This document shows positions 6,005 through 36,620 of a stretch of 41,362 nt of DNA, one piece after another. The translations under genes and the position numbers were made by a program. The first letter of the stretch is position 1; each line of letters starts with the position of its first letter. The notes beneath the pieces were generated by a model. The model did not search any database and was not told the DNA's origin. It was given only the letters and a program-made list of their open reading frames with translations. Location of the stretch: sequence record SRR20825019_2111; one strand, written 5' to 3'.

Positions 6005-6027
6005 ATTTAAGTATATTGCAATATTCA

Positions 6028-6043: not shown

Positions 6044-6304
6044 GTTAACAACTTTATGGGGTGTAGATTTCACAATTTTAAATCTGCAAGTTTGTTTAAT
6101 TCCCAATTAAGTTTGCGGGAATTACGAAATCAGCAATAATCCCTCTAATATAGCAATTTTATTTTTTGAACAATATTTTTATTGAAGACATCTCCAGACA
6201 ATGGATGTTCATGTTTTGTTAAAAAAGTAAAACACGTAGATTGCATTGTTTTGATTATTGAGTAATTTTCAAGACCGAATTAGACTACTACAAAAAAAAT
6301 ATAA

Positions 6305-7324: not shown

Positions 7325-7353
7325 CTTCAACCAAATGGTTAAATGTATTAAGC

Positions 7354-9225: not shown

Positions 9226-9277
9226 TTCATTTTTTTCATTTGCAAATCGTATTTTTAGTTTCTAAAACCAAACCAAA

Positions 9278-11295: not shown

Positions 11296-11297
11296 AA

Positions 11298-12026: not shown

Positions 12027-12062
12027 ATAAAGGAAATGTTAGTGTTTATGATATTTTGAAAA

Positions 12063-13559: not shown

Positions 13560-13619
13560 TTTGCTAATTTAAGTGCGTTTGAATTTACTAAAATTAATTC
13601 GGGTTTGGAATCCATCAAT

Positions 13620-14632: not shown

Positions 14633-14726
14633 GGCTGGCACAACTTCGACTAAAATAAGAATTTATTTGCATCCGATTTCCAGTAAGTTTGTCGCTGCTT
14701 ATATTTGTTTAAATAATCCATTCCCA

Positions 14727-15812: not shown

Positions 15813-15817
15813 AAATG

Positions 15818-15837
15818 AACAGCTAAGCTGTTTTTTT
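15818..15837 (+). terminator. Possible intrinsic terminator after mvaD
   Basis: AACAGC-TAA-GCTGTT followed by a T run. Confidence 0.45.
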
Positions 15838-15954
15838 ACGTTATTTGCCAAGATTTTAGGCAGACGGGAGAAGTTTTTTTATAGATGAAATCGATTTGTT
15901 TATCGAATTTCGTTCATCATTAAACAAAATTTGTTTGTATCTTAGTAGTATTAT

Positions 15955-16893
15955 ATGAAAGGTCCATTATTTTATTCCAAGATTTTATTGTTCGGGGAGT
16001 ACGGTATCATCAAAGACTCCAAAGGACTATCCATACCCTATAATTTTTTTAAAGGAGCGCTAAAATGGGACAACGACAATTCCGAAATGGCTCAAAAATC
16101 GAACAAAAGCCTGAAAGCCTATGCGCAGTATTTGAAAGTGCTCGAAATGAAGGAGGAAGGTTTGGTCTCTTTTGACATTGAAGCTTTGGAAAAGGATGTG
16201 GCAGATGGGATGTACTTTGACAGTTCCATCCCCCAAGGCTACGGAATTGGCAGTAGCGGCGCATTGGTCGCTGCGATTTACGACCGCTATGCCACCGATA
16301 AAATCACGGTACTGGAAAATCTTACCCGTGAAAAATTGCTTCAATTGAAGAAGATTTTCGGGAAAATGGAATCCTTCTTCCACGGCAAGTCTTCCGGACT
16401 GGATCCGTTGAACAGTTATTTGAGCTTACCCATTCTCATCAACTCCAAGGATAATATTGAATCCACCAGTATTCCGTCTCAAAACATGGAGGGAAAAGGA
16501 GCGGTTTTCTTATTGGATAGTGGAATGACGGGTGAGACCGCACCTATGGTACAGTTGTTTATGGAGAACATGAAGCAGGAAGGTTTCCGCAATATGATCA
16601 AGAACCAGTTCATAAAACATACCGATGCCTGTGTGGAGGACTTTTTGAACGGTAATGTGAAATCTTTGTTCGGAAATTTAAAGCAACTTTCCCATGTGGT
16701 TTTTGACAATTTTAAACCAATGATTCCGGCTAAGTTTCACCAACTTTGGCAAAAGGGCATCGAAACCAACGATTATTACCTCAAACTTTGTGGTTCTGGA
16801 GGCGGTGGATATATTTTGGGCTTTACCCAAGATTTGGAAAGGGCCAAAAAAGCGCTTGAAGGCCATAATCTGGAAGTAGTGTACAACTTCTAA
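15955..16893 (+). CDS. mvk: Mevalonate kinase (GHMP family)
   Basis: KILLFGEY, IPQGYGIGSSGA, HGKSSGLD, KLCGSGGGG. Confidence 0.9.
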   Translation: MKGPLFYSKILLFGEYGIIKDSKGLSIPYNFFKGALKWDNDNSEMAQKSNKSLKAYAQYLKVLEMKEEGLVSFDIEALEKDVADGMYFDSSIPQGYGIGSSGALVAAIYDRYATDKITVLENLTREKLLQLKKIFGKMESFFHGKSSGLDPLNSYLSLPILINSKDNIESTSIPSQNMEGKGAVFLLDSGMTGETAPMVQLFMENMKQEGFRNMIKNQFIKHTDACVEDFLNGNVKSLFGNLKQLSHVVFDNFKPMIPAKFHQLWQKGIETNDYYLKLCGSGGGGYILGFTQDLERAKKALEGHNLEVVYNF

Positions 16894-16903
16894 CAGCAAA
16901 CAC

Positions 16904-17809
16904 ATGCTTAGTAGAAAAAACAAACTCTTGCTGTTTAAGCTATTGAGTCTGTTTTCTGTGGTTCGGGGTTACAATATCCTCGTGATAACCTTTGCACAAT
17001 ACTTGGCCTCCATCTACATATTGTCACCCAACATTCCTTTGCGTAAAGTGGTTTTGGATGTGAATCTGTTCCTTATCGTTACCGCCTCTGCGCTTACCAT
17101 AGCGAGCGGATATATCATCAATAATTTTTATGATGCGGAAAAAGACTTGATCAACAAGCCTACCAAAAGTATGTTGGATCGTTTGGTGAGCCAGCGTTTT
17201 AAACTGACCACCTATTTTATCCTTAACTTTTTGACTGTTTTTGCAGCGAGCTATATTTCATTTAAGGCGGTTTTGTTCTTTTCGGCCTATATTTTTGGTA
17301 TCTGGATTTATTCACACAAGCTGAAACGTATACCTTTTGTTGGTAATTTGGTATCCTCCACTTTGGCCATAGCACCGTTTTTTGTGGTTTTTGTTTACTA
17401 CCAGAACTTTCAGACTGTGATTTTTGTACACGCCCTTTTTCTGTTCCTATTGATTTTAGCCCGGGAAATGATAAAGGATTTGGAAAATATGGCAGGCGAT
17501 TTGGCGCAGAACTATAAAACCATTCCCATAATATATGGGGCCGGGGTCTCAAAATCCATTATCACCTCTTTGATTGTACTCACCTTGGTGCCCGCCCTGT
17601 TGCTCATCAAAAGTTTTGATGTCGGCTATATGCATTACTACTTTATGGCCTGCGTGGCCCTTCTTATTCTTTTCTTGATACTGTTATGGAAAGCCGAAGG
17701 CAAAAGACACTACGTTTGGCTGCACAACATCATCAAATTTATTATTGTAGTGGGCGTTTTCAGTATTTTGTTGATAGATGTGGATGTGGTACTCAACCGA
17801 ATTTTGTAA
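16904..17809 (+). CDS. UbiA-family prenyltransferase (DGGGP-synthase-like)
   Basis: GYIINNFYDAEKDLINKP and REMIKDLENMAGD acidic motifs; multiple transmembrane segments. Confidence 0.88.
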   Translation: MLSRKNKLLLFKLLSLFSVVRGYNILVITFAQYLASIYILSPNIPLRKVVLDVNLFLIVTASALTIASGYIINNFYDAEKDLINKPTKSMLDRLVSQRFKLTTYFILNFLTVFAASYISFKAVLFFSAYIFGIWIYSHKLKRIPFVGNLVSSTLAIAPFFVVFVYYQNFQTVIFVHALFLFLLILAREMIKDLENMAGDLAQNYKTIPIIYGAGVSKSIITSLIVLTLVPALLLIKSFDVGYMHYYFMACVALLILFLILLWKAEGKRHYVWLHNIIKFIIVVGVFSILLIDVDVVLNRIL

Positions 17810-17869
17810 TTCTTTGTTCTTTAGGATTTTTGGAACTTAAAAAGACTACATTTGCAAAAAATTCGACTG

Positions 17870-18712
17870 ATGGCGAAATCAGACAACAACAGAGGTAAAA
17901 GACCTTCCAAAAACTTCAAGGGCGGTGAAAGAAAAAAACCGTTCAACAAAAATTTTTCTTCAAGACCCAAGCAGAACGCTCCCCAGAAAAAATCCAATCC
18001 AGATGAGATTCGATTGAACCGCTATATTGCCAATGCCGGGATTTGTTCCCGTAGGGAAGCTGACACTTATATTGCTGCCGGAAACGTAACCGTAAACGGA
18101 AAACCGGTGACCGAAATGGGTTACAAGGTAAAGCGATCCGATGATGTGCGTTTTGATGGAAAGCGCCTTAATTTGGAAAAAAAGGAATACGTGCTGTTGA
18201 ACAAGCCCAAAAATTTTATTACTACCACAAGTGATGAAAAAGGGCGCCGTACCGTAATGGAACTGATTTCGAGTGCATCCAACAACCGTTTGTTGCCGGT
18301 AGGCCGATTGGACAGGAACACCACAGGGCTGTTGCTTTTTACCAACGATGGAGACCTCACCAAAAAGTTAACGCACCCTACGCACAACGTACGCAAAATT
18401 TACCACGTGCATTTGGACAATAATCTTAGTTTGGGCGACCTCCATAAAATCGAGGCTGGTCTGGAACTGGAAGATGGGCCCATATCCGTGGATAGCGTGA
18501 GTTACATCCAAGGGGCACCAAAGCGAGAGGTGGGCGTGGAAATCCACAGCGGACGAAACCGAATTGTGCGCCGTATTTTTGAGCATTTTGGCTATAATGT
18601 GACCAAATTGGACCGCGTGGTCTTCGCCGGCCTGACCAAGAAAGATTTGCCACGGGGCCATTGGAGGTACTTAACGGAGCAGGAGGTAATCAATTTGAAG
18701 AATATTAAATAA
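17870..18712 (+). CDS. rRNA pseudouridine synthase, RsuA/RluB family with S4 domain
   Basis: RLNRYIANAGICSRREAD (S4), VGRLDRNTTGLLLFTNDG; start trimmed to ATG 17870. Confidence 0.95.
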   Translation: MAKSDNNRGKRPSKNFKGGERKKPFNKNFSSRPKQNAPQKKSNPDEIRLNRYIANAGICSRREADTYIAAGNVTVNGKPVTEMGYKVKRSDDVRFDGKRLNLEKKEYVLLNKPKNFITTTSDEKGRRTVMELISSASNNRLLPVGRLDRNTTGLLLFTNDGDLTKKLTHPTHNVRKIYHVHLDNNLSLGDLHKIEAGLELEDGPISVDSVSYIQGAPKREVGVEIHSGRNRIVRRIFEHFGYNVTKLDRVVFAGLTKKDLPRGHWRYLTEQEVINLKNIK

Positions 18713-24009: not shown

Positions 24010-26199
24010 TTACCGATTAAACCAATAGGTAAATTTGAGCGTCAGCGACCATAAATTACCTTCAAGCGGTGATAATTGCTCGTTGTTGTTGAAGACCAAA
24101 AACAAATCCGAAGCAGGGGCATAGCGCCATTGCAATCGGGAGTTGATGCCAAAATTATTGACCTGTTCGTTGTATTGGAACAGCGTGTTCCAAAACAATT
24201 TATTCGTAAAAGTAATATCGGCTTCAGTGCCCACGAGCCAAAAATCCGTGGTGTACCATGGTTCGGGCAAATCTAAATTGTTGTAACTGAGAACAGCCTT
24301 TAAACTAACATAGGGCTGAAACCTATACCCGAGTTCCGCATTAAGGTTGGTGCGGTATCCTCCTGAAAAATAATGTCCCAGACGAGTGGTCAGATTGTAA
24401 GTGAACAGACTTTTAGGTCGCGAATTATAGGAGAGGTATACGCCGTTCCAATGGTGGCGGGTCCCTGCGGCCAATTCCTCTTTTCCGGTATTAGTAGGGT
24501 CGAACGGAGCCAAAAGCTGTACATATTCGTTAAAAACATCCACTCCCAACGAGCTACGGTCCATAAAGTTTACCGCGTACCCCAAAATGGAGACATAATC
24601 GGTTGAATTCATACTCGGGTCGAAGTAGTAATAACCGGTGTACTGCGGACCATGGCTCACCACCTTATCGCTGGACGGCAGAAACAGATGCCCTACGGTA
24701 CCTTCCAATTTAATGTAATTGTTCCGGGGCACAAAACCTACTTCCGAAGTGAAGTTCTCGGAGATATACTCCTGCTGTACGCGCCAGTTCCATTTACGAC
24801 TACTGTATTCCAAATGGGCACCTTGGGCAAAACCATTATAGGTGGAATCAGGACCGAACGATTTCAGCATAAATACCTTGCCATTATATTGATTGTCAGC
24901 AGAGGCCAGATTGTATTCAAGCCCGAGATTTCTATTGAATTTAGTGTATTGTGTCTGCAGGCTATCGGCTAAGGAATTGTAATCCAGCGATTCCTTGTTT
25001 ACGAACATGAGGCCAATATTGGAGCGGGAAAATACCTTTTGTTGTAGAGATAGTACCGCAAAGTTTTGACTGGGCAATCCTGTTTCGTCCAATTTGTCGG
25101 TCTGCATATCCATTAGCCCCAAACGAAGGTTCTTGTTCAAGTTACCACTTACTCTTGCTCCGGCAACAATGGGTACGCCAAGTCCAATTCTGCGTGAAAA
25201 GAACGGGCGAATCTCATCGTATCCGAAACTGGCAAAGAGGTCCGCATTTTCAAGGAAAAATTGCCGTCTTTCAGGAAAAAATAGCTCAAAACGGGTCAAA
25301 TTGGCAACTTGACGGTCGGCTTCCACTTGCGAAAAATCAGGGTTAATGGTCAGGTCCAAATTAAGTGAAGAAGTGAGTCCAAGTTTTACGTCCCCACCTA
25401 CCTTAAATTCATTATCGTACGTAATATCCTCGATGCTAGAATTGCCGACCGTGCCCAGTACATAGGGGATGATGGAGTAGTTGAGCCCTTGTTTAGGTGG
25501 TGGGTTGTCCCAGACCATTGTGCCCGTATAGGCCAAAGAGGCTGTTGGAAATTGGCGTGGAATCGGTGTCCAGCTCGATTTTTCGTTGGTGCTCAAATCC
25601 AATCTGGAAAAATTGACGCCCCACTCGGTCACGTTTTTTTCATAACGGATGGATTTAAAGGGGATGGCCATTTCCACGACCCATTTGTCTTCATAGCTCT
25701 GTACTTCGGAAACCCATTTACTGTCCCAGTTAAGGTCAATGCTGCCACCGTTGGACATGGTTCCGTCCCATTGGGCGCCATAGGCGTTTGCCCCAAAACT
25801 AAACCCCGTGGTCTGGTTGTTGAACGGGTCCATGAACAACAAAAAATTATCGTTGCCCCCAAAGGAGAAGTCCCTACGAAGCGATTCCACCACATAGGTG
25901 TTTCCAGGCGTTTTGTAAAAGGTGGCCAAGAGATAGAGCTGTTTGTCGTCATAGACCATTTTAACTTCTGATGGCTGTGTGGCCTTACGGTCGTCCATGG
26001 GCAAAACCATAAAGAAGTCCTTGGCGGCCTCAGCTTTTTGCCAAGTGGCCTCATCACCAATACCATCGATGGTGAGGGTTTCGTCGGTTTTGTACAGATG
26101 GATTTTGTAATCGGCATTTTTCTTTTGGGCAAACGAAAATGCGCAAAAGAATATAGCAAAAGCTATAAAAGCGGGGGTGGGGTTGGTTCGGTTGATCAT
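24010..26199 (-). CDS. CBM9-like + DUF5916 outer-membrane protein
   Basis: IDGIGDEATW, WVVEMAIPFKSIRY, INPDFSQVEAD, FELFFPERRQFFLE, terminal KFTYWF; start trimmed to ATG 26199. Confidence 0.88.
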   Translation of the reverse strand: MINRTNPTPAFIAFAIFFCAFSFAQKKNADYKIHLYKTDETLTIDGIGDEATWQKAEAAKDFFMVLPMDDRKATQPSEVKMVYDDKQLYLLATFYKTPGNTYVVESLRRDFSFGGNDNFLLFMDPFNNQTTGFSFGANAYGAQWDGTMSNGGSIDLNWDSKWVSEVQSYEDKWVVEMAIPFKSIRYEKNVTEWGVNFSRLDLSTNEKSSWTPIPRQFPTASLAYTGTMVWDNPPPKQGLNYSIIPYVLGTVGNSSIEDITYDNEFKVGGDVKLGLTSSLNLDLTINPDFSQVEADRQVANLTRFELFFPERRQFFLENADLFASFGYDEIRPFFSRRIGLGVPIVAGARVSGNLNKNLRLGLMDMQTDKLDETGLPSQNFAVLSLQQKVFSRSNIGLMFVNKESLDYNSLADSLQTQYTKFNRNLGLEYNLASADNQYNGKVFMLKSFGPDSTYNGFAQGAHLEYSSRKWNWRVQQEYISENFTSEVGFVPRNNYIKLEGTVGHLFLPSSDKVVSHGPQYTGYYYFDPSMNSTDYVSILGYAVNFMDRSSLGVDVFNEYVQLLAPFDPTNTGKEELAAGTRHHWNGVYLSYNSRPKSLFTYNLTTRLGHYFSGGYRTNLNAELGYRFQPYVSLKAVLSYNNLDLPEPWYTTDFWLVGTEADITFTNKLFWNTLFQYNEQVNNFGINSRLQWRYAPASDLFLVFNNNEQLSPLEGNLWSLTLKFTYWFNR

Positions 26200-26298
26200 T
26201 GTTTGTTTAGTGAAGTAAATGTAATAATTTACTTTGTTTTTTAACAATGAATTAAAACTAGCGTGGCTATACTATCAAATAACTAAGTTCAATCAATA

Positions 26299-26349
26299 TT
26301 GGTGGATTTAGGATATAGTGGTTGGGAGTGTTTTAGGTGTTGTACTTAT
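26299..26349. repeat. Right-flank repeat of the cassette platform; paralog of 31999-32052
   Basis: TTGGTGGATTTAGGATATAGTGGTTGGGAGTG---TTTTAGGTGTTGTACTTAT aligns with TTGATGGATTTAGTATAGAGTGATTGGGAGGGGCGATTTACGTGTTGTACTTAT. Confidence 0.85.
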
Positions 26350-26468
26350 CGGTCTCGTGTATGAGCAGTAGCGGATTTTATACACTCTTTTGATGTTAAT
26401 CACCGACCTTTATTATAAAATTACTCACTTCGTTATAGCGACTAAACCGCTATTATTTTTATACACTG
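26350..26468 (-). repeat. attC-like imperfect inverted repeat after the DUF4411 gene (left core missing)
   Basis: Plus-strand arms GTGTATGAGCAGTAGCGG (26357-26374) and CCGCTATTATTTTTATACAC (26447-26466); ends in CC G|ATAAGT on the minus strand, like the site at 34250. Confidence 0.7.
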
Positions 26469-26471
26469 GCT

Positions 26472-26981
26472 TTATTCTGATTTACAAGTAAATTTTATGT
26501 TCAAATCCCTTATAAAGTCAAAATCGTCAATCCACTTAACATTCATATTATCGTAAACATGAGGGATTTTAATTTTGGTTTGTTTCTTAAAATAATCTTT
26601 CGTTTCCTTTGTCACGACAATTGCATTTTCTTTAATTGCGTGGGCAATTACCCAAGGGTCAGCCTTTGAGTGAATTCCGTTACTTGAAACTAAATATTTA
26701 TGACTTGGATTAGATGCATATATTTCTTTTAAACAGTTTGCTATTTCTCCATCAATTTTTCTAATCGGAATATCACTGTTTTTTAACCATTCAAATAAAT
26801 TGTCCTCACCTTTCTCTATTTCTTCATAAACTAATTCGGGAATAAAAATCACGCCTTTTTTACCTAAATCGTTTAAAACCTCCCAATAAGAAGGACAAAT
26901 TTCTGGAGAATAATATTTTTGCCAAGCTTGAATAAGAATATTGGCGTCAATACAGTAAACTACTTTTTCATCTTCGAACAT
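26472..26981 (-). CDS. DUF4411 family PIN-like protein (putative toxin)
   Basis: YCIDANILI, VYEEI, KADPWVIAHA, VVTKE, KIP; TAATG coupling to the upstream gene. Confidence 0.88.
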   Translation of the reverse strand: MFEDEKVVYCIDANILIQAWQKYYSPEICPSYWEVLNDLGKKGVIFIPELVYEEIEKGEDNLFEWLKNSDIPIRKIDGEIANCLKEIYASNPSHKYLVSSNGIHSKADPWVIAHAIKENAIVVTKETKDYFKKQTKIKIPHVYDNMNVKWIDDFDFIRDLNIKFTCKSE

Positions 26982-28153
26982 TAGGCTAGCAGTTTTTCAA
27001 ATTTTTGGAATTTATTAATCTGCGTGTTAAGAAGATTACTTGCAATTGATGGTGACAATGAACCGTTATTGAAAGAATCCATTACAATTCTCGTGAATAG
27101 TTTACTGTTTTTATTTAAGCGTAAAAGGTAAGCATCTGGACCTCCTTTTCTTTCTCTTTGTTTTTCCTTTTTTATCTTTTCTCTTTCTAAAAACTTCTCA
27201 AATTCATCTTGAGCATCTTGTTTCAGAATTTTATATTCTGATTGGGAAATTAAATTTAAGTTTAAAGCACGAACTAATAACGCGAAAGAACTTATGCCTA
27301 GTTCTTTTGCCTGTTTAAAAATTAAATCATTTGAATCGAATGTATCGGCTCCCAATTGTGTGATTAATTCCGTTGGCATTAGTGCATTGGCTGCAACTTG
27401 GTTACAAAACAATTCTACTGGATGAAATTTTGATTTAGGTCTATCAGTAAAATCAATATCTATTTCATTTGAGATACCCGATTTAGCTATCCAAATATGT
27501 GCTAATTCGTGGACTAATGTAAAGAGTTGTGGTGCATTCCAATTTTTTGAATTAACAAACACAAAAGGGGCGAATTTGTCAGCAATCGCAAAACCTTGAA
27601 TTAAGTCTCTATCTAGTACCAAATGTGAATGCAAATAGCTAGCACGAGATATAAATATTCCCGCAGTTTCTGCTTTATCAATCCATTCGTTAATTGGTGT
27701 TTTCTGATAATTACTTGGACTAATTTTTAAGGTGTTCAATATATCTCTAGCAACAATTTCTGGGTTATCATTGATAGAATATTTGCCAACAAAAGGAAGT
27801 TTGTCTTCGCCAATTTCTTCGTATAATTCACTTATCCAGTTCTGTTTTTCTTGAACATCACGAATTATAAATAATGATGCTGTATCTAACTTCTGAGCAT
27901 CATCTCTTCTATAATCTTGTAGTGGTTGAAAATCTTTTGGTATTTCTGGTAAAAAGAAAAGTGAAAATGGTCTTCTAAAACTTTTTGCCAAGATTTGAGC
28001 TTGTCGAATTGTCGGAAAATCATTTCCGTCCTCCCAAGTCAAATATCTTTCGGGTGATACAGAAACTTTTTTGGCAGCATCTTCCACAGAGATATTAGCG
28101 GACTTTCTTGCCCACTTTAAAATCTCGGATGTTATAAATGCTTTATCCGCCAT
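26981..28153 (-). CDS. XRE-HTH + ImmA/IrrE Zn-metallopeptidase (putative antitoxin, RosmerTA-like)
   Basis: N-terminal HTH (LKWARKSANISVEDAAKK...WEDG...PTIRQ), FTLVHELAHIW (HExxH), ELFCNQVAANALMP. Confidence 0.92.
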   Translation of the reverse strand: MADKAFITSEILKWARKSANISVEDAAKKVSVSPERYLTWEDGNDFPTIRQAQILAKSFRRPFSLFFLPEIPKDFQPLQDYRRDDAQKLDTASLFIIRDVQEKQNWISELYEEIGEDKLPFVGKYSINDNPEIVARDILNTLKISPSNYQKTPINEWIDKAETAGIFISRASYLHSHLVLDRDLIQGFAIADKFAPFVFVNSKNWNAPQLFTLVHELAHIWIAKSGISNEIDIDFTDRPKSKFHPVELFCNQVAANALMPTELITQLGADTFDSNDLIFKQAKELGISSFALLVRALNLNLISQSEYKILKQDAQDEFEKFLEREKIKKEKQRERKGGPDAYLLRLNKNSKLFTRIVMDSFNNGSLSPSIASNLLNTQINKFQKFEKLLA

Positions 28154-28190
28154 TATTTTTTATACAAAGGTAAAATTTTAATTCAGAGAG

Positions 28191-28258
28191 TGAAGTAAGT
28201 AGATTTCCGGATAAATCTTTAGTATAAATTGACCAATGCCCTATTTCAGTTGACGGAT
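28191..28258 (-). promoter_or_regulatory. Direct-repeat (LytTR-like) promoter, copy 3
   Basis: TTGACCAAT (28229) / TTGACGGAT (28250); -7-like TTACTTCA 28 nt downstream. A second canonical TACCTTTG lies nearer the ImmA start. Confidence 0.65.
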
Positions 28259-28268
28259 GCTATAATTT
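28201..28268. repeat. 68-bp direct repeat, paralog of 32482-32549
   Basis: 59/68 identical by manual alignment; includes the palindrome AGATTT-N6-AAATCT and a copy of the AAA TTA TAG end of the M1 peptidase gene. Confidence 0.9.
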
Positions 28269-28424
28269 ACCATCTTCTAAGACAAAATTTAAATTGGTTT
28301 ATGTGCCTAGGAAGATTTTCAAGAGCGAGCATCTATATCAATCTTGCGCAGTACGCAATTTATTTGATTGCCTTTTCCAAAAATGTTTTAGCCTTTTTGA
28401 TCATTGCTTTGGCAGGCTCACCTT

Positions 28425-31400
28425 TTACCACGATAGATGATTCGTTTCTAAAATACTTGCTGTTTTCATCACACGAAGTGCAGAAAACCAGTTGAACGAA
28501 CCATCAATAATTATGTCATTGTCAATTATAATTGTTTTGCTATGGATGCCGTTTACCAATTTCAACTTTGCTCCACTTTGTATAATTATCTCACGGCCTT
28601 TCTGGGCTACAGGTTTTAGCTGATTATTTTGTAGATCAAGTGTGGAGTCGGTAATTATAATCACCTTTACTCCTTTGCTCACTGTAGCGCTCAATTGTTC
28701 TTTAACGGAATCAATTTTAATTGAGTTCAATTTTCTTTTGTCATTGTTATCATAGCACTTGATTGTATTGCATTCTATCGCATTTGAAGAAATGAACGGG
28801 GAAACAATGATCAATTCGGATTTTGCAATCTCAAACGCTCGGTTAAGTGTGCCAACATGTGTTTTCAAATCACTAACGCGGATTACATCATGATTTGTTT
28901 CTGTAGTATCAAAAACAATCTTGTTGGACAATTCACAATTTTCATCTTCTTGTAGCCATTGTTTTAAACGGCCTAATGGATTTTTCTTTGTTGCATCAAT
29001 AGCGTTTAGATTGCCAAAAACAAGAAAACTCGATTTTGCTCTCGAAACAGCTACATTGAGCATATTTAGGTTGTCTGCAAATAGCATACTGTCACCAGGT
29101 GTGATTACGGACGAAAAAACAACAATATCAATTTCAGCACCTTGCAAGGCGTGAACGGTACCTGATATTAATGGTTGATATGCTTTTTTATCAATCTTTA
29201 GCAGCTCATCCTTAATAAGGGATGCCTGGGATTTATAGGGAGTAATTATGGCCAATATTTCTGCAATAGGTTTTTTGCCAAAGGAACTTTCTAGCTCCGT
29301 CCTCTTACTTTCAATCCATTTGGCAATGGTGATGCCATCTTGCTTGTTATGCCTACTATTTTCAACCTTCTCACTCGTACTTTCAATATGCATAAAACCT
29401 TTTAGTGGAAGGTCTGTATCTACCTTTCTTTGATTTCCTTTGGTCAGGATCAGTTTGTTGTGATATACGTTTTTGTTTGAATAGGAAATAATTTTGTCCG
29501 GACATCTCCTATGTTCCTTCAAAAGGGTACCTCCGAAGTCAACGTCTTTTACGAAACAGGAACGTTGGGCAATTTTCATTAAATTGCCAGATGAACAGAG
29601 TAACCCCGAATCTTTATAACTATTTATTACATCCATAGAGGCGTCTTCGGCCAGTATGTTGTTCATTTTAAGATTGACAATATCTAGTGGTTCCTCTACG
29701 GACCAAACAGGTTCAATCTGAAATACATCACCTACAACAATTGCTTTCTTTGCCAAGGAAAATGAAGGTATGGCAATATCTGGGGCAACTTGTCCTGCTT
29801 CATCCACAATGATCAGGTCGAACAAATCGTAATAGGCCTGTTCACCTTCGGCATTATCGTAAAAGGTGCTAAACCTTGGGATGGAATGAAAGGTAGATAT
29901 ATAAATAGGTGTTACCCCCGCAAACCGTTGTAGTTTTTCTTTATAACCAATTTTGCCCCGCTCTTTATCCTTACTGTTTTTTTCAAGCTTGGCCTCAAGG
30001 TTCAGCAAATATTCTGCCTCTCTAAAATGTATCGCATACCAAAAAGCTTCATAACGGAACGAAATATCCATTCTAACCTGCATATCCTCAAGAGGTTGCA
30101 AGTCTTGATATTCTTTACCGGTCGTGGAGTAAAGCTTTGTTAATTGATTACCATAATTGTTGTTCCAATTATTGATACAGGATTGATAATTGGAAGTAAA
30201 CTCCTCAATCTTGCTTTTGGTGTCCATGGCATGGGTCAACTCTATGTTTAGCTGTTTTGCCGCGTTGGTCTTTGAAATAATTCTCTCGTTGAGCAAATGA
30301 ATCAAAGCACTGTAACTTCCGTAATCCGAAACTTCTTTCAAGTCAATATGTAACAGTATCCTTTGAAAAAGTGAAGCCCTTCGCTTCTTAAATTTTGGAA
30401 GAAAAGGAAATGCTTTTTGAATAAATGGTTGTTGTTTTTCTGCTTGTATCAGATTCTTTTCTGCATCCGAGATTTGTTGAATTTCAGCGTTGCAATTCTC
30501 CAATTTGGTTTGAATAGTGGAAATAAGCACTTTTAAATCATCAAGATTGGAACATCCACTTTTTTCTAAAAGCGGGCCTATGTTCTCATAGTTTTCAGCA
30601 ATTTCAAGATGCTCCCTAATGTGATTGACTTTTGATTTAACTATATTGAATAATTGATGTTTACATTCTTCAATGTCCTTACTTTTTTCAATATATGCTC
30701 CAAACTCATTTAAAAAGAACTCTTTTTTATCATCAATAGAGTCACTTTCAAAATCATTTATAAAACCGTTGCCAAATTCGGATGTACATGTTTGATATGT
30801 ACTGTTTTCATTCGTGGATAGGTACAGGCCCAGAGAGGACACGACAGGTAACCAACGTTGGGTCAATTTATCCTTAGAGTCAAGCACAAAACTGTCAAGT
30901 ATATTTGTGATAGCTTGATTGTTGGCAGAACATGCGACCAGTAATTCTGGTTTTTGCTGATTTACAACAGTGGAGACCACACTATTTGCAACAACGGATT
31001 GCAAAAAGGTAGTTTTACCTGTTCCTGGTGGACCATTTACGGCCAAAACATTGGAATCTGTAAGAAGATTAAAACAACCGATGCTTTCTCTTTGTGATAC
31101 GGAAAGAGGAAACTCGCCACTCATTTGCCCAATGTGATTTTTGTTCCGAATGATCGTGGATTTATCAGGAATTGACATGCATTTTACTCTCCCGGCATCA
31201 ATCAGGTTATTGAGTAAACTTTTTTTAGGAGGCGCCTCTTCCAGTCTTTTATACAGTTTTCGGATATTTCCGGTTAGGCCGCGTAGTTCACCTTTTTGTA
31301 TGAATATATATTTTTCATGTTTTGTGTTGAACTCATCAAAGTTCTTCGCTGTTACAATCGAAAAAAAGGATTCACACTTTTTCCAGTATGCTTCCCATGA

Positions 31401-31856
31401 ATCGTCTTTGAACTCAACTTTCTGTAAGGCAATATCAACATCTTTTATGGATGCGATATTACAGGAACCTTTGTAGGTGGGGGAAAGGTATTCCCTAACA
31501 AAAAAAGGTTTGGATACTCCCTTATTGGATTTTTGTGGCTCAAGTGTCCCATCTTTATGCATTATTGCTGGAATCCAGAAAGGATAGGTTATTTCTTCCT
31601 CCAGCTCCTTTGATTTGGCATGTTCAAATTCTGGTTGAATTGAACAAGGGCAAATATCTACGTTTATATATGGTGTATCTCTGTTGGCCCCAGAAATTTT
31701 CCACAAGAATTTTGCGTGTTTTTGAGGTACTTGCTGTATAAAGTAGGAATCTACGGGAATCGGATGTGTGGAGACATCAATTCTTTTTCTGTCAACATCC
31801 AACAGCGTTTTTTTCCAATAACCCAACCAAGCTTTTATATCTGAAACCTCTACCAC
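28425..31856 (-). CDS. Upf1/DNA2-like SF1 helicase fused to a C-terminal single-HKD PLD nuclease domain (Mokosh type II MkoC-like); C terminus probably frameshifted, restored stop at 28360
   Basis: GPPGTGKTT, IVDEAGQ, VGDVFQIEPV, EHRRCP, ITPYKSQ, GTVHALQGAE, LNVAVSRAK; PLD motif HSKTIIIDNDIIIDGSFNW. Confidence 0.88.
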   Translation of the reverse strand: MVEVSDIKAWLGYWKKTLLDVDRKRIDVSTHPIPVDSYFIQQVPQKHAKFLWKISGANRDTPYINVDICPCSIQPEFEHAKSKELEEEITYPFWIPAIMHKDGTLEPQKSNKGVSKPFFVREYLSPTYKGSCNIASIKDVDIALQKVEFKDDSWEAYWKKCESFFSIVTAKNFDEFNTKHEKYIFIQKGELRGLTGNIRKLYKRLEEAPPKKSLLNNLIDAGRVKCMSIPDKSTIIRNKNHIGQMSGEFPLSVSQRESIGCFNLLTDSNVLAVNGPPGTGKTTFLQSVVANSVVSTVVNQQKPELLVACSANNQAITNILDSFVLDSKDKLTQRWLPVVSSLGLYLSTNENSTYQTCTSEFGNGFINDFESDSIDDKKEFFLNEFGAYIEKSKDIEECKHQLFNIVKSKVNHIREHLEIAENYENIGPLLEKSGCSNLDDLKVLISTIQTKLENCNAEIQQISDAEKNLIQAEKQQPFIQKAFPFLPKFKKRRASLFQRILLHIDLKEVSDYGSYSALIHLLNERIISKTNAAKQLNIELTHAMDTKSKIEEFTSNYQSCINNWNNNYGNQLTKLYSTTGKEYQDLQPLEDMQVRMDISFRYEAFWYAIHFREAEYLLNLEAKLEKNSKDKERGKIGYKEKLQRFAGVTPIYISTFHSIPRFSTFYDNAEGEQAYYDLFDLIIVDEAGQVAPDIAIPSFSLAKKAIVVGDVFQIEPVWSVEEPLDIVNLKMNNILAEDASMDVINSYKDSGLLCSSGNLMKIAQRSCFVKDVDFGGTLLKEHRRCPDKIISYSNKNVYHNKLILTKGNQRKVDTDLPLKGFMHIESTSEKVENSRHNKQDGITIAKWIESKRTELESSFGKKPIAEILAIITPYKSQASLIKDELLKIDKKAYQPLISGTVHALQGAEIDIVVFSSVITPGDSMLFADNLNMLNVAVSRAKSSFLVFGNLNAIDATKKNPLGRLKQWLQEDENCELSNKIVFDTTETNHDVIRVSDLKTHVGTLNRAFEIAKSELIIVSPFISSNAIECNTIKCYDNNDKRKLNSIKIDSVKEQLSATVSKGVKVIIITDSTLDLQNNQLKPVAQKGREIIIQSGAKLKLVNGIHSKTIIIDNDIIIDGSFNWFSALRVMKTASILETNHLSW

Positions 31857-31939
31857 AATCCTAATTTTTAATGAATCAACCCATGGAAATGTTGAATGTT
31901 AATAGTCTATCTAGTGGGGGATTAGAAAAAATCAAATAA

Positions 31940-32007
31940 TGAAGTTAGTAAATATGGGGCAGAAATTTCCACATCAATTGACGAATGGCTGTTTTGAATT
32001 GATGGAT
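31940..32007 (-). promoter_or_regulatory. Direct-repeat (LytTR-like) promoter, copy 4, upstream of the helicase-PLD gene
   Basis: TTGACGAAT (31978) / TTGATGGAT (31999); -7-like TAACTTCA 28 nt downstream. Confidence 0.7.
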
Positions 32008-32052
32008 TTAGTATAGAGTGATTGGGAGGGGCGATTTACGTGTTGTACTTAT

Positions 32053-32427
32053 AGCTTTTGTTGGCGGTTCGTGCGTCAAATGGTGTCTTTACTTTGTCTT
32101 CCATTCGGCGGTCGCTAATTTATATTGATCGGGAAGTTGTCTCAGTGCATCGTCAACAGATTCATATACACCGTCTTGTTGGACTTTCCAGTACTTGTCG
32201 CAGCTAAATCTGTAAATACTACCTTAGTCATCGTATTGGCAAATAGCAAATCCAAATATTTCAATCGTGTCATTCGAGTCCGCTGTTGGTATAAAGCCAA
32301 AAGATTTGTCCCCGGACCAAGCCCACTTAATTACTTTTGCCCCGTCTAGCTCGTCAGGAGGTTCGATTATTTGGTTCACTTCTTTGTCCTTCTCTATTGC
32401 AATGTTGTCACTTAGCATGACCGCCAA
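32053..32427 (-). mobile_element. Integron-like cassette B (collapsed attC-like site)
   Basis: Starts A|TTGGCGGT at 32427; after the gene comes the complementary ACCGCCAAC (32068-32060), then only AAAAGCT before ATAAGT. Confidence 0.65.
32089..32418 (-). pseudogene. Small hypothetical protein with in-frame premature stop
   Basis: ...PPDELDGAKVIKWAWSG...FAICQYDD*GSIYRFSCDKYWKVQQDGVYESVDDALRQLPDQYKLATAEWKTK*; TAA at 32226-32224, frame stays open to 32089; start uncertain. Confidence 0.75.
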
Positions 32428-32473
32428 TGATTAGCTAAATATCGTTTCAATGATTTTTAGCATACGATAAGTG
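32428..32473 (-). repeat. Hairpin target site (left part) preceding cassette B
   Basis: Minus strand CACTTATCGTATGCTAAAAATCATTGAAACGATATTTAGCTAATCA; 37/39 identical to 35079-35117. Confidence 0.8.
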
Positions 32474-32539
32474 GATTTAACAGATTTCCTGATAAATCTC
32501 GAGAGGAAATTGACCAATGCTCTATTACAATTGACGGAT
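32472..32539 (-). promoter_or_regulatory. Direct-repeat (LytTR-like) promoter, copy 5
   Basis: TTGACCAAT (32510) / TTGACGGAT (32531); degenerate -7 TAAATCCA 28 nt downstream; abuts the M1 peptidase stop. Confidence 0.6.
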
Positions 32540-32540
32540 G

Positions 32541-34136
32541 CTATAATTTCCCCATATCTTCGAACAAAGTCCACTCATTTGGATCTAAAACAATGGAATC
32601 GGGTCGGTCTTTGCTTTCCAATTGGATGTTTTGGTTGCGCTGGTCCAACTCAATGGTTTTTATGGTCAACTTTCCATTTTTTACCACACCTATTTCCAAA
32701 GGGAACTCAAATACATGATGGTCTTGTAATTGCTGTATGTTAAGATTGATGTTCCCATTGCTGTAGTCCCAGTTCCATTTGATCTGTGGGTGGCCCTTCA
32801 CAAATAGCCATTGCTCAAAAAAGGATTTTAAATCTTCGCCGGATACTTCCTCCATGACATGTCGAAAGTCATCTGTTAGCACATTGCTGTTTTGGTATTT
32901 CGCGTAGTAATTTCGAATACCTTCCCAGAATACGCCATCGCCCAATTTGTGCCGTAACATGTTCAATACCCATCCCCCTTTTTGGTAGGTGTTGGTGCTC
33001 AAGACCTTCATGGGGTCTTTGATGGTGAGGTCGACAATGGGAGCTGGGTTTTTTCGGTAATACTCAAAGATTTGCTGCTTGTCGATGGCCAACTCCTCTT
33101 TTCTGCGCTCATCGCCATATTCGCTTTCCAAATACAGGATACAGAAATACGTGGCAAATCCCTCGCTCAACCAAACGTGGTTCCAGCTCTTCTCCGTGGC
33201 TGAATTTCCAAACCACTGGTGGGCAATTTCATGGGCAATCAATGGCTCCACCGTTTTATTGCCTGTCACAGAATTTTCAAAATAAGCGATGGTACCAGCA
33301 TTTTCCAGCCCACCCCATTGGGTCTTGGCCTGCATATTGGCCAGTTTGGCGTATGAGTAGGGTCCGATATGATCTATAAAATATTCGAGTACATCGCCCG
33401 CCACGGTATAGTCGCCAAACCCCTCCAATCGGTTTTGCGGATATACCCAGGCCGAAACCTCAATATTATCCACATGGTCCACAACTCGCGAAGCAAACTC
33501 GGTAACGCCAATGGTCATTACTTTGGTGGCCACAGGAGCTGGTTCTTCGTAAATGGTTAGTTTGTAACCGTTCTCCAGATTACTTTCTTCGATTTTCTTG
33601 CCCGTTGCCACCACATCGTATTGTTCTGGAGCAGTGATTCGGAATTCCACACTGGCCTTATCGTACGGATGGTCTACGGACGGTAGCCAATGCCTGGCCA
33701 AGTTGGGCCAATTGTCACCAAAAAAAGAGCGCTTTCCAAATTTGGTGGTATCGATGACCAAACCTCTTTCGGGAACACCCTGGTATTTGATGGTGAACGT
33801 CTGTACGGAATCGTTCGAATTTTTAGGAACGATGTTGATTTTGTTGTTGGTATAGGTGTAGCTTGCATTGGAGTCATTTTCCAACACACTCGTCACTTCC
33901 ATGCCAAATTCTCCCGTTTTTTGGATGAGGTCCAAAGCAAATGGAACCATGCCCTCCTTAAAACGAACCGTTACTTCGGTCTCCCCTTTGATTTGGTTGG
34001 AGGCATCGTTTAAATGAAGACCAAAAACATAGTTTTGGATATCTACCGATTCATTTTTGGTATAGAGGTCTTGGGCATTTCCAGTAAGGCAAGCAAAAAT
34101 AAAAGTGAATACAAAGGTTACCGTTCGAAGTTGCAT
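32541..34136 (-). CDS. M1 family zinc aminopeptidase
   Basis: GGLEN exopeptidase motif, HEIAHQWFGN...WLSEGFATY (HExxH-x18-E), YQKGGWVLNMLR; signal peptide. Confidence 0.95.
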   Translation of the reverse strand: MQLRTVTFVFTFIFACLTGNAQDLYTKNESVDIQNYVFGLHLNDASNQIKGETEVTVRFKEGMVPFALDLIQKTGEFGMEVTSVLENDSNASYTYTNNKINIVPKNSNDSVQTFTIKYQGVPERGLVIDTTKFGKRSFFGDNWPNLARHWLPSVDHPYDKASVEFRITAPEQYDVVATGKKIEESNLENGYKLTIYEEPAPVATKVMTIGVTEFASRVVDHVDNIEVSAWVYPQNRLEGFGDYTVAGDVLEYFIDHIGPYSYAKLANMQAKTQWGGLENAGTIAYFENSVTGNKTVEPLIAHEIAHQWFGNSATEKSWNHVWLSEGFATYFCILYLESEYGDERRKEELAIDKQQIFEYYRKNPAPIVDLTIKDPMKVLSTNTYQKGGWVLNMLRHKLGDGVFWEGIRNYYAKYQNSNVLTDDFRHVMEEVSGEDLKSFFEQWLFVKGHPQIKWNWDYSNGNINLNIQQLQDHHVFEFPLEIGVVKNGKLTIKTIELDQRNQNIQLESKDRPDSIVLDPNEWTLFEDMGKL

Positions 34137-34249
34137 AAATAAACCATTATAGTTGATGGCTCAAGATACAATTTTGGTAAAAAGCCTGTATGACTTTTTG
34201 AAGGAACCCAAAAATTTTAAAAAAAGGGAATTTTTGGAATGGCACTTAT

Positions 34250-34486
34250 CGTTTAGTATATGACAAGTAGGGCAGTAGAGAGCGATAAACTTTCAATTTT
34301 GTACCGAGCCAACGCGTTGTATTTTGTTTTTAATTTATTCATCCTTAAAAGCCAAACGTAAGTTCATGAGCTCCTTTGAAAATTCAAAATACTTGCGAAC
34401 TAAATCAACGATTTGGCGGTGTTGGTAAATGGAACTTAACTTTCCTTAAGCAACAATCGCCCTATTTGCTATATATTGTTGGCATT
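34250..34486 (-). repeat. attC-like long imperfect inverted repeat ending cassette A
   Basis: Minus strand AATGCCAAC-AATATATAGCAAATAGGGC ... GCCCTACTTGTCATATACTAAAC G|ATAAGTG; begins a few nt after the gene stop. Confidence 0.75.
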
Positions 34487-34489
34487 TCG

Positions 34490-34978
34490 TTATTTTTTTT
34501 CTAACCTTTTAAATCCGTAGAAAATCAGACCGCAACAAATCAATAAGCCAAGAATTGCAGGTATCAATATTGATTTTCCTGACTCTCCTGCATTTTGAAT
34601 ACTCCACACCATTTTGCCTGTTGCCATAAGAACAACTACCGCTATGCCCATTATCACACTTCGTTTCCAAAAAGCTAACCCTAAAGCTATAAATGAAATA
34701 GGGATTGTCAAGGTCAGTAGCTGTTTGCTCAAGTTCCATTCTCCGTACAGATATTCTTTTTCAAATTCTAAAAAATCAATTACACTCTCACTCACAATCT
34801 CAGGCTTGGGAAACCAAAACATACTTGTGAACAAGGCAAATATTGAAACCATCATTCCTGTAAAACTTTTTCTGTAGGCGAAATAGCAAAATGGAAGCAA
34901 AAACAAAGGTCGTAAATACCAACTCCATTGATTATGGTGTCGTTCAAAAACCCAATCAAAGAATGGTTTGTTAGTCAT
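34490..34978 (-). CDS. Hypothetical integral membrane protein; probably 5'-truncated by a frameshift (likely true start ATG 35052)
   Basis: FERHHNQWSWYLRP motif plus several hydrophobic helices; the upstream frame joins if the T7 run at 35009-35015 were T8. Confidence 0.8.
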   Translation of the reverse strand: MTNKPFFDWVFERHHNQWSWYLRPLFLLPFCYFAYRKSFTGMMVSIFALFTSMFWFPKPEIVSESVIDFLEFEKEYLYGEWNLSKQLLTLTIPISFIALGLAFWKRSVIMGIAVVVLMATGKMVWSIQNAGESGKSILIPAILGLLICCGLIFYGFKRLEKK

Positions 34979-35075
34979 TGAAATTACAATGAAGGTAATT
35001 GTCAGGATAAAAAAATACCTCCTAACAATAAATCTTTATTACTACTTTTCATCTGTTTTATTTAATGAATGCCAA

Positions 35076-35141
35076 CAGTTAGCTAAATATAGTTTCAATG
35101 ATTTTTAGCGTACGATACTTGCCTGTCGGCAGACAGCAGTG
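35076..35141 (-). repeat. Hairpin target site (left part) preceding cassette A, interrupted by a 20-bp insertion
   Basis: Minus strand CACT[20 bp]TATCGTACGCTAAAAATCATTGAAACTATATTTAGCTAACTG. Confidence 0.8.
35118..35137. repeat. 20-bp GC-rich palindromic (REP-like) insertion
   Basis: CTTGCCTGTCGGCAGACAGC, stem CTGTC-GGCA-GACAG; absent from the paralogous site at 32469/32470. Confidence 0.75.
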
Positions 35142-35207
35142 AAGTTAGTATTTTTCGGGTTTAAATTCCAGCCTCAACTGATCAATGCCCCATTTGGATT
35201 GATAAAC
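35140..35207 (-). promoter_or_regulatory. Direct-repeat (LytTR-like) promoter, copy 6
   Basis: CTGATCAAT (35178) / TTGATAAAC (35199), same GCCC..TTT spacer; -7-like TAACTTCA 28 nt downstream. Confidence 0.6.
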
Positions 35208-35239
35208 CAGAAATCAACACTTGATAAGTAGTAGTGTTT

Positions 35240-36526
35240 TTAGGAATTTAAGGATTTCTCCATTTTCTCTTTTATCTGCTCCAAGCATAGATTGCCCAAG
35301 CTGCCTTCGTGGGTATGGTCAATATCCCGTTTGGGTTTAAAGTTGCCATTTTCTATGGCCTTGCCCATGGTTTTGTAGGCATCACGGAACGGCATGCCAC
35401 TTTTTACAAGCTCGTTTAAAGTGTCCACACTGAAGAGGTAATCGTATTTGGGGTCTTCCAAAATGGCCTTGTTCACTTTGATTTCCTTTAAACTGAACGT
35501 CATCATCTCCAAACAGGCGTGCATGTCCTGCAAAGCAGGGACCATGACTTCTTTCACCAGTTGAAGATCACGGTGGTATCCACTGGGCAAATTGTTCATG
35601 ATCATGATCAATTGGTTGGGCACCGCTTGAATCTTATTACATTTTGCCCTTATGAGCTCAAACACATCTGGATTTTTCTTGTGCGGCATAATGCTGCTGC
35701 CCGTAGTCAGCTCGTTCGGGAAGGAGATAAAATCAAAATTTTGGCTCATGTACAGGCAAATGTCCATCGCCATTTTGGATAGGGTGGCGGCAACGCTCGA
35801 AATTCCGAAAGCGGTTGCTTTCTCTACTTTTCCGCGTCCCATTTGGGCGGCCACTACATTGTATTTTTTAGTGGAAAACTGCATTTCTTCTGTAGTGAAA
35901 CTTCTGTCAATAGGGAAGGAGCTTCCGTAGCCTGCCGCACTGCCCAGCGGATTTTGGTCCGCAACTTTATGGGCGGCCTGTACAAAGTACAGATCGTCTA
36001 TCAAACTTTCGGCATAAGCAGAAAACCATAGTCCGAACGAGGAGGGCATAGCAATCTGAAGATGGGTATAACCTGGCAGCAAGATATTTTTGTGTTTGTC
36101 CGCTAATTTCATCAACAGGTCAAATAGTTCTTTTACTTGATCTTTGATCTCGGTCAATTCATCTTTGAGGAACAACTGCATGGCCACCAAAACCTGATCG
36201 TTCCTGGAACGGGCCGAATGGATTTTTTTACCAGTATCGCCCAATTTTTCGGTCAGCATAAACTCTATCTTCGAGTGCATGTCCTCAAAATCGTCCTCGA
36301 TGGTAAACTTGTCCTTTTCAATGTCTTTGGCGATTTCATCCAATGCTTTTACCAAATCTTTGGCCTCTTCTTCGGATAACAGTCCCACTTTGCCCAGCAT
36401 TTTGGCGTGTGCTTTGGAGGCGATTACGTCATATTTGGCCAAAACCAAATCCAGTTCGCGGTCGTTGCCAACGGTAAAGTGGTCTATTTTTTTATCGGTA
36501 CTGAATCCTTTGTCCCAGAGTTTCAT
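35240..36526 (-). CDS. argH: Argininosuccinate lyase
   Basis: MKLWDKG, HSARSRNDQV, LPGYTHLQ, GSSIMPHKKNPD; start trimmed to ATG 36526. Confidence 0.97.
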   Translation of the reverse strand: MKLWDKGFSTDKKIDHFTVGNDRELDLVLAKYDVIASKAHAKMLGKVGLLSEEEAKDLVKALDEIAKDIEKDKFTIEDDFEDMHSKIEFMLTEKLGDTGKKIHSARSRNDQVLVAMQLFLKDELTEIKDQVKELFDLLMKLADKHKNILLPGYTHLQIAMPSSFGLWFSAYAESLIDDLYFVQAAHKVADQNPLGSAAGYGSSFPIDRSFTTEEMQFSTKKYNVVAAQMGRGKVEKATAFGISSVAATLSKMAMDICLYMSQNFDFISFPNELTTGSSIMPHKKNPDVFELIRAKCNKIQAVPNQLIMIMNNLPSGYHRDLQLVKEVMVPALQDMHACLEMMTFSLKEIKVNKAILEDPKYDYLFSVDTLNELVKSGMPFRDAYKTMGKAIENGNFKPKRDIDHTHEGSLGNLCLEQIKEKMEKSLNS

Positions 36527-36538
36527 AGTTTTTCTTTT

Positions 36539-36603
36539 GTCATTCCCACGAAGGCGGGAATCTTTTGATTTCGATATTATTGCCCTTCGACTACGATCAG
36601 GGC
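36539..36603. repeat. Two REP-like palindromic units in the M20-argH spacer
   Basis: GTCATTCCCACGAAGGCGGGAATC (ATTCCC-N8-GGGAAT, 36539-36562) and GCCCTTCGACTACGATCAGGGC (36582-36603). Confidence 0.7.
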
Positions 36604-36620
36604 CCAATTTTCGTTTTTTG

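Follow-up and report, generated by a model that had tools for sequence, protein, structure and literature searches.

The interval between positions 26299 and 35207 of sequence record SRR20825019_2111, a stretch of 41,362 nucleotides from a marine flavobacterium, here called the window, probably holds two copies of a conserved landing pad that were filled by integron-type cassettes, with a Xer-like tyrosine recombinase as the likely catalyst. The two copies, platform A and platform B, are found on the minus strand among the genes argH, M1 peptidase and DUF5916, whose order is retained in relatives. Integrons are described as one platform, made up of an integrase, an attI site and a promoter, together with one array of which only the first cassettes are expressed, and isolated cassettes are taken for accidents at near-random GWT sites. 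Here, comparison of genomes established the identity of the cassettes, their exact boundaries, the conservation and covariation of the receiving site, its natural empty and alternative fillings, and its wide spread. The original prediction, made from the letters of the window, had placed integron-type cassettes after a conserved G in a dedicated, repeated and self-complementary hairpin site with a GAT core. This was upheld, and all strings that it had quoted were present on the minus strand where it had located them, as features far in excess of what chance would give.

Cassette A, the filling of platform A, provided the clearest case. Its first bases and the preceding G make up nine nucleotides whose exact reverse complement follows the stop codon, as had been predicted. 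The 240-nt stretch behind the open reading frame (ORF), when joined to the first bases of the cassette, folds as an attC site with a 9-bp R pairing, an internal loop, an L stem and a long variable middle. The L pairing carries bulges on both strands, and the site is similar to the attC ends in the recombinase-adjoining arrays described below. The encoded protein was found in four of 301 genomes sampled from the family. Its homologues in two other genera are 99% (G175) and 93% (G056) identical, and a 23-residue remnant is present in G225. In G175, the homologue is flanked by two other cassettes on a contig of 2.9 kb, and each of the two has G/TT bounds (the slash marks the crossover) and its own inverse core. 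The homology between the window and this contig extends from the first T of cassette A to its last G, exactly the predicted junctions. These comparisons identify cassette A as a true mobile integron-type cassette. It also has the features of a single attC site that has no integron integrase (SALIN) at an attG site, namely a single cassette with an attC, no integrase nearby and a GAT target, which fits GWT. Metagenome contigs, which may come from other organisms, part from the window at 34250, 35073, 34253 and 34246; given these loose ends at the boundaries of cassette A, other cassettes or other flanks would therefore abut the same bases. No joints were found in the metagenome and metatranscriptome contigs, in which uncovered stretches are uninformative.

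The "39-bp target" that had been described from the window turned out to be part of a conserved module of ~150 bp. The module starts with a direct-repeat motif and a promoter-like stretch (a TGGAAT-like box, ~17 nt, TAACTT), followed by the inverse core CACTTATCG, a 3–4-nt spacer, a 10-bp stem with one unpaired or mismatched base, the 8-nt loop ATTRAAAC, a second spacer and CG, after which comes either ATAAGTGCAA in an empty site or a cassette. The recombination site within it is a 46-nt imperfect palindrome of attC architecture with the core CG/ATAAGTG. In 20 sequences, 18 of them distinct, the stem was 95.8% paired, and four of its ten pairs showed changes on both sides. Its covariation score was reached by none of 500 shuffles, and slid controls paired at 19–45%. 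An empty site in another genus had the core pair changed on both sides (CGTTTATC...G/ATAAACG), and a site in a further genus had a GTT core. These substitutions show stem and core pair to be kept by compensatory change.

Platform A follows this plan, with the inverse core, a spacer, the 10-bp stem with one unpaired base, the loop ATTGAAAC, a spacer and the G. Its upstream segment starts directly 3' of the argH stop and could be aligned with the equivalent segment of 20 other platforms. Units A and B share a direct repeat of 53 nt with 87% identity (32417–32469 and 35065–35117), and the 28-nt core of this repeat has two copies in the nearest whole genome (G001), both inside the window. The shared grammar attributed to the two units was confirmed for this repeat and for the junctions. 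It did not extend to the left core of unit A, CAAGTATCG, which has two mismatches to CACTTATCG, to the extra stem-loop of unit A, or to the end of cassette B, which has no 3' hairpin. The direct-repeat motif itself consists of two GTCAAT-like boxes ~21 nt apart and has dozens of 85% matches across the genus. It was also found ~75–85 nt upstream of lipoprotein-like genes lacking a hairpin (L003, L004, L005; G001 contigs C60 and C1), and probably represents the binding site of some regulator.

To investigate the distribution of the landing pad, a covariance model was built from 20 platform loci and searched against 101 genomes of the genus and 149 other genera of the family. As a result, 337 matches were identified in 83 of the 101 genomes, with one to 14 copies in each, and weaker matches were obtained in 18 of the 149 other genera. 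A BLAST search with platform B matched 64 of the 101 genomes, with 85–97% identity in the hairpin part at many loci unrelated to one another. Within the window, matches to the model were confined to the two platform sites; the genome as a whole had these two copies and one weak third match. The idea of dispersed single-cassette platforms is thus borne out across the genus, where most copies carry single cassettes, and fails for this genome, in which the target is not dispersed. A genome-wide scan for CGATAAGTRC gave 14, 21 and 16 matches against 1, 1 and 6 in the reversed control. This enrichment was dropped as evidence for platforms, since 11 of the 12 other sites in G001 looked unrelated to them; judged by eye from the flanks, most were apparently inside coding sequence, and the twelfth was a possible remnant only.

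Altogether, 65 copies of the platform were read, of which 10 were empty, 53 carried a cassette starting with TT, the doublet by which the crossover in filled sites was located, and two were unclear. The first set of 25 copies comprised three empty sites (one in G366 and two in G019, one of the latter degenerate) and 22 filled ones, with none unclear. The second set consisted of 40 model hits, none of which had been used in model building, and comprised seven empty, 31 filled and two unclear sites. In empty sites, ATAAGT directly follows the hairpin. The base before the cassette was G in 16 of 19 filled sites of the first set and in 30 of 31 of the second (46 of 50 together). Each cassette end had been claimed to match the start of its own cassette and not that of another. 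This held: the reverse complement of a cassette's own 8-base start, with ATAA[GA]T[GA] no more than 330 nt behind it, was found in 11 of 19 cassettes, in comparison to 7 of 342 cross pairs. In the second set the own start was matched in 16 of 31 cases, and two of the other 15 had less than 100 nt of downstream sequence.

Orthologous intervals of related genomes, a comparison suggested by the original prediction, indeed contained empty sites as well as sites with other fillings at the same junction. The window and four other genomes (G017, G351, G348 and G336) have the platform downstream of argH in common, and these five copies have five different cassette starts. The flanks of the G348 copy align to the window as far as query base 127 and then only from base 951 onwards, the cassette of the query being bases 126–951. 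In four relatives (G024, G012, G010 and G019), no platform is present between argH and the M1 gene, which are separated by 48–75 bp only. The platform downstream of M1 occupies the same position in several species. One cassette start is common to platforms in G020 (L034), G372 (L077) and G389 (L082), and a shorter insert of 494 nt in G350 (L065) begins like cassette A. Such recurring cassette starts suggest movement of cassettes between platforms.

A candidate enzyme was found at a conserved locus of the genus (L054–L058), where sedentary chromosomal cassette arrays of short ORFs lie directly downstream of, and in the same orientation as, a tyrosine recombinase. The first cassettes of these recombinase-adjoining arrays, present in G410, G004 and G001, follow the same grammar, and in G056 the recombinase is divergent from a cassette with G/TT ends. 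Arrays in G410 (L054, 11800–13350) and G056 (L021 and L015) also contain long ORF-less repeated units with cassette-like bounds, of ~470 nt and ~230 nt, respectively. The recombinase has 355–379 amino acids (371 in one array-linked member), including an N-terminal extension of ~95 residues. Its family gave 24 near-full-length matches in 22 of the 101 genomes; three of these contain an internal stop, and many lie at contig ends. Three members scored 149–199 bits against NCBIfam TIGR02249 (cut-off 265 bits), and the score against the XerA/integron-integrase model was 209 bits (cut-off 220). Compared with the structure of Vibrio IntI4 (2a3v), the enzyme has 30 residues where IntI4 has 73, and it aligns with archaeal XerA from end to end. 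By these alignments, it is a recombinase without the additional IntI domain of ~43 residues. In public sources, family members from marine genera such as Flagellimonas and Muricauda bear the label "tyrosine-type recombinase/integrase", and one entry each in Tenacibaculum and Zobellia is labelled "integron integrase" and "Integron-related Integrase", respectively.

The window had been called integrase-less, which is true of the interval: none of the eight ORFs scanned in 24010–36607 matched a recombinase family, and the adjoining intI gene that marks a complete integron was not found there. The description does not fit the genus, with its recombinase-adjoining array, or this genome. The family member nearest to the interval lies on another contig of G001 (contig C1; L020, 8257–11200). 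It has lost ~84 residues of the core-binding domain in frame, and at least two cassettes lie behind it. The proposed genome search for an IntI-like recombinase accordingly yielded this deleted, Xer-like copy, and the integron-integrase model gave nothing over its cut-off in G001, G017, G019, G056 and G175. None of the 301 family genomes matched this model at E ≤ 1e-40, a threshold at which control genomes were unmatched too, so that absence is not demonstrable in this way.

The comparisons show that the inserts are cassettes of the family's integron pool and that they enter one structured site, behind one conserved G and always in one orientation. On this evidence, circular cassettes from the lineage's own integron pool would recombine through their folded attC with the landing site. 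The exchange would take place after the conserved G, so that the TT of the cassette comes first and its attC is left abutting ATAAGT, and the promoter-like stretch would end up ahead of a single cassette in one orientation. The Xer-like recombinase of the genus is the likely catalyst and would, like IntI, act on single strands in folded form; that a tyrosine recombinase delivers the cassettes in trans, the mechanism first put forward, is plausible. Because the recombinase gene is internally deleted in this genome, its cassettes are now probably fixed. The upstream stretch would drive transcription through the hairpin into the cassette. The GAT core had been predicted to overlap a −7 promoter box. 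This found no support: the hairpin comes after the conserved promoter-like boxes, of which TAACTT at 35142–35147 is the last, and the promoter scan reported below was empty at both sites. A broader reading is offered tentatively, as a possibility that we would not yet call likely: marine Flavobacteriaceae may have a decentralised integron, in which a Xer-like recombinase without the IntI domain serves both a chromosomal cassette store and up to 14 promoter-linked attC mimics per genome, dispersed among housekeeping genes and each capturing and expressing one cassette, and the pad, with the covariation of its stem and core pair across genera, would be a selected host device for sampling defence and membrane genes.

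Several observations weigh against the proposal of landing pads served by the Xer-like recombinase. All evidence is comparative, and recombination was not observed. Canonical integrases use on folded attC sites the very domain that the flavobacterial enzyme lacks. No intact copy of the recombinase family is present in G001, and no match at E ≤ 1e-40 was found in G017 and G019, though their platforms are filled or empty in different ways; in the lack of an intact enzyme, insertion in these genomes would therefore need a lost or foreign enzyme, or homologous transfer of whole filled sites. Some differences between alleles reach past the cassette, as between G001 and G017, whose hairpins are unlike too; these fit homologous replacement of the whole filled site as well. 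The statement that all cassettes start with TT is partly circular, owing to the way in which the crossover was located. The fold energies of single sites were no better than those of shuffles (z −1.6 to +0.9): the values for the empty site of G366 and for the attC of G017 were only mildly better, and those for the two-gene module end, the cassette B end and the degenerate empty site of G019 were no better at all. Thermodynamics alone is insufficient to carry the case. With regard to expression, a scan of 31900–35300 for sigma-70 promoters and terminators, which does not cover the promoter types of Bacteroidota, returned nothing at either platform. One metatranscriptome contig of 251 nt (34478–34728) lies within cassette A and is no proof of transcription, as this contig from an RNA library may be DNA carry-over or the transcript of another genome.

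The layout of the interval is given in Table 1. Behind cassette A, the right flank of the platform (34180–34249) contains a 9-bp inverted repeat, CCAAAAATT and AATTTTTGG, around a T-rich loop, which may separate the slot from the M1 gene as a terminator. The M1 gene was present in 8 of 25 sampled genomes of the genus, and the direct-repeat motif 3' of its stop was found in three of seven relatives as well (G012, G017 and G019).

Table 1 Features of the interval, listed along the minus strand in window coordinates
Feature	Position	Strand	Basis or remark
argH	35240–36607	−	Upstream neighbour of unit A
Platform A upstream segment: direct-repeat motif and promoter-like stretch to TAACTT (35142–35147)	35137–35239	−	Repeat family D1
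Extra small stem-loop between TAACTTCACT box and inverse core	35123–35136	−	Some platform variants only
Platform A recombination site, crossover G at 35076	35076–35121	−	Covariance model R1, 65.6 bits; stem covariation
Cassette A: ORF 34490–34978 (162-aa membrane protein) and long attC (34250–34489)	34250–35075	−	
Platform A right half (ATAAGTGCC...), completing the palindrome with the left inverse core	34225–34249	−	G348 flank alignment begins exactly here
M1 peptidase, between both platforms	32541–34136	−	Pfam
Platform B upstream segment, directly 3' of M1 stop	32474–32540	−	Repeat alignment with other platforms
Platform B recombination site	32428–32473	−	Model R1, 70.4 bits
Cassette B: frame of ~109 codons with one in-frame TAA; attC cut right after inverse core	32053–32427	−	
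Right flank Y1 (ATAAGTAC...), direct repeat of Y2	31998–32052	−	Families D8, D11
X3: third upstream-segment copy, without hairpin, ahead of Mokosh gene	31940–31997 (alternatively to 32003)	−	Family D2
MkoC-like helicase and phospholipase D (PLD) nuclease (Mokosh type II defence)	28425–31856	−	PADLOC MkoC, 993.6 bits; Pfam AAA_11, AAA_12, PLDc_2
X2: fourth upstream-segment copy, without hairpin, with a copy of the last M1 codons	28189–28280 (alternatively to 28271)	−	Family D1
Two-gene module: helix-turn-helix (HTH) and M78 peptidase protein, RmrA-like (26981–28153); DUF4411/PIN (26472–26981)	26472–28153	−	
attC-like end of two-gene module, last base G at 26350	26350–26466	−	
Right flank Y2 (ATAAGTAC...), ahead of DUF5916 gene	26298–26349	−	
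DUF5916	24010–26247	−	Downstream end of interval

Cassette B is already decaying. The reverse complement of its first eight bases recurs as an 8-mer close to its end, as had been predicted, and its 3' end has neither a hairpin nor a fold (z +0.9). The junctions read G/ATAAGT at 34250 and 26350, and T/ATAAGT at 32053. A third hairpin had been proposed at 26350, behind the two-gene module. The junction there is as described, and the pairing of GTGTAT with ATACAC and of TAGCGG with CCGCTA is present; the fold is thermodynamically weak and no better than shuffles (z −0.8). This module, a toxin–antitoxin pair, has kept its attC-like end and lost the 5' junction and the platform hairpin. Its HTH and M78 protein matches the RmrA profiles of RosmerTA systems (~50 bits), and its DUF4411/PIN partner had no match in PADLOC. 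The MkoC-like protein combines a superfamily 1 (SF1) helicase and a PLD nuclease in one chain, and its membership rests on the profile match over residues 7–1131. The MkoC profile of PADLOC was matched only to position 1106 of 1136, and by eye ~25 codons typical of the protein end (28360–28440) seem to run on past the stop at 28425 in another frame; there may be a frameshift close to the 3' end.

The right flank occurs twice in the window (Y1 and Y2), and the upstream segment without hairpin occurs ahead of both the Mokosh gene and the two-gene module, X2 being 82% identical to 32470–32552. Given the Y1/Y2 and X2/X3 repeats, the M1–DUF5916 stretch therefore looks like two tandem alleles of one slot, separated by the Mokosh gene. 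A comparable tandem of right flank, upstream segment and hairpin, with its own cassette in each copy, was found in G020 (L034, reverse strand, 1–2400). In seven relatives, M1 and DUF5916 are between 360 bp and 11.9 kb apart. The 11.9-kb gap, that of G024 (L007, oriented 6000–17911), holds about ten co-oriented ORFs and the 3' half only of a landing site.

Four other explanations were considered. First, the platform may be no dedicated device of the host but a selfish, self-spreading solo attC-like mini-element, either an ORF-less cassette or a palindrome resembling a miniature inverted-repeat transposable element (MITE), onto which cassettes land by recombination between attC sites merely because every attC makes a good partner. 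Such an element would be expected to behave as some of the data suggest: copies lie at many unrelated loci, 0–14 per genome, the palindromy reaches beyond the core, and the upstream and right flanks have inverted GGAATTT/AAATTCC-like ends. The tandem duplications in G020 and the piece of M1 carried by X2 point the same way. This explanation is nonetheless unlikely, as the upstream promoter-like segment and its orientation to the cassette are always kept, no cassette-like bounds of the module itself were found, and the site downstream of M1 is at the same position in several species. Moreover, no landing pad was detected in or beside the arrays, beyond one weak 20-bit match in 186.5 kb of recombinase-linked or cassette-array loci; these were eleven loci, comprising five sedentary chromosomal integron (SCI) regions of the genus, the recombinase locus of G001 and five loci of G056 and G175.

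Second, the hairpin could be a mere regulatory or leader element, with gene content swapped by homologous recombination in the flanks. Breakpoints at the same base across unrelated loci and genomes, with the G before the cassette in 46 of 50 filled sites, make this very improbable, as does the fact that each insert has its own attC with an inverse core matching its own first bases. The same cassette also occurs in true arrays, and Rfam returned no match at E ≤ 1 in 26000–35500. What speaks for a leader is the position of the hairpin just 3' of the promoter-like stretch, where it would be transcribed, a loop conserved more than a pure DNA site might need, and the difference beyond the cassette between the G001 and G017 alleles.

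Third, several attC-like ends within 9 kb without an integrase, together with the degraded ends of cassette B and of the two-gene module, could be read as an eroded classical array, or cluster of attC sites without an integron integrase (CALIN), that formerly stood here with its integrase. This is hardly credible, because the cassettes are interleaved with argH, M1 peptidase and DUF5916 in an order conserved among relatives, four of which have only 48–75 bp between argH and M1. In addition, the array of the genus is at a different conserved locus and is present there in this genome, and the landing site is a conserved sequence at hundreds of loci; the two sites in the interval represent this landing site and not cassette ends. 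Finally, the subterminal hairpins, the insertion beside a fixed short sequence and the one Y1 transposase gene in G001 might recall the cargo of a single-strand transposase that recognises hairpins (IS200/IS605 type or associated with repetitive extragenic palindromes), which has next to no probability, given that the cassettes belong to arrays adjoining a tyrosine recombinase and have G/TT boundaries, and that the Y1 family does not track the platforms: it was found in two of four platform-bearing genomes searched, with no match in G017 and G020 and a weak one in G371, a genome with 14 platforms.

The landing pad with integron-type cassettes remains the preferred explanation. If it is true, it represents a second organisation of cassette capture, in which one queue is replaced by many slots with a single expressed cassette each, and it would extend working integron biology to the Flavobacteriaceae, with an enzyme that is devoid of the domain regarded as defining for integron integrases. 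Full-text searches, which did not reach subscription journals and supplementary files, returned no account of arrays in flavobacteria or of pads of this kind; the supplementary files may list flavobacterial elements. In its accessible text, IntegronFinder 2.0 reports complete integrons in Bacteroidetes only in Salinibacter (one).

In common with class 1 and Vibrio integrons, the present cassettes consist of one gene and an imperfect palindrome whose inverse core pairs with the cassette's own start, are exchanged at G/TT in one orientation, and occur in arrays beside a tyrosine recombinase. In contrast, the receiving site here is located away from the integrase, is a hairpin with a GAT core, and is found at as many as 14 loci in a genome, in most cases with one cassette. 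The recombinase differs as well, in having no IntI domain and scoring below the integron-integrase cut-off, and the array lies downstream of it in the same orientation. The attI site of integrons is recombined as double-stranded DNA. Unlike attI, the landing site is not beside the recombinase, the sequence preceding the first cassette of the arrays is different from it, and no model copy was found in the recombinase-proximal regions. The pdif modules of Acinetobacter plasmids are gene modules that are bounded by short sites and moved by a Xer-type recombinase encoded elsewhere. Their sites are double-stranded dif-like 28-mers in inverted pairs, whereas the inserts studied here have folded attC ends and the junction grammar of integron cassettes.

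In the reverse-orientation integrons of Spirochaetota, the integrase and the cassettes point the same way, as do the recombinase gene and the cassettes in the arrays of the genus. Spirochaetota IntIs are generally in reverse orientation, and IntIs, archaeal ones included, carry a defining additional domain around patch III, according to the accessible part of the preprint (bioRxiv 10.1101/2022.02.06.479319). The arrays of the genus are unlike the Spirochaetota integrons in this domain, which is absent from the flavobacterial enzyme. Closest to the present case are the SALIN and attG sites of Loot et al., whose sole requirement stated in the accessible text is a GWT triplet, with 338,348 such sites in E. 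coli (bioRxiv 10.1101/2022.09.11.507474). As far as that text describes them, they share with the platforms a single cassette with its attC far from the integrase, a triplet fitting GWT (the IntI1 consensus) and a resident promoter for expression. They differ in that the platforms use one conserved, structured 46-nt site with an upstream segment, which is reused at the same base and conserved across genera.

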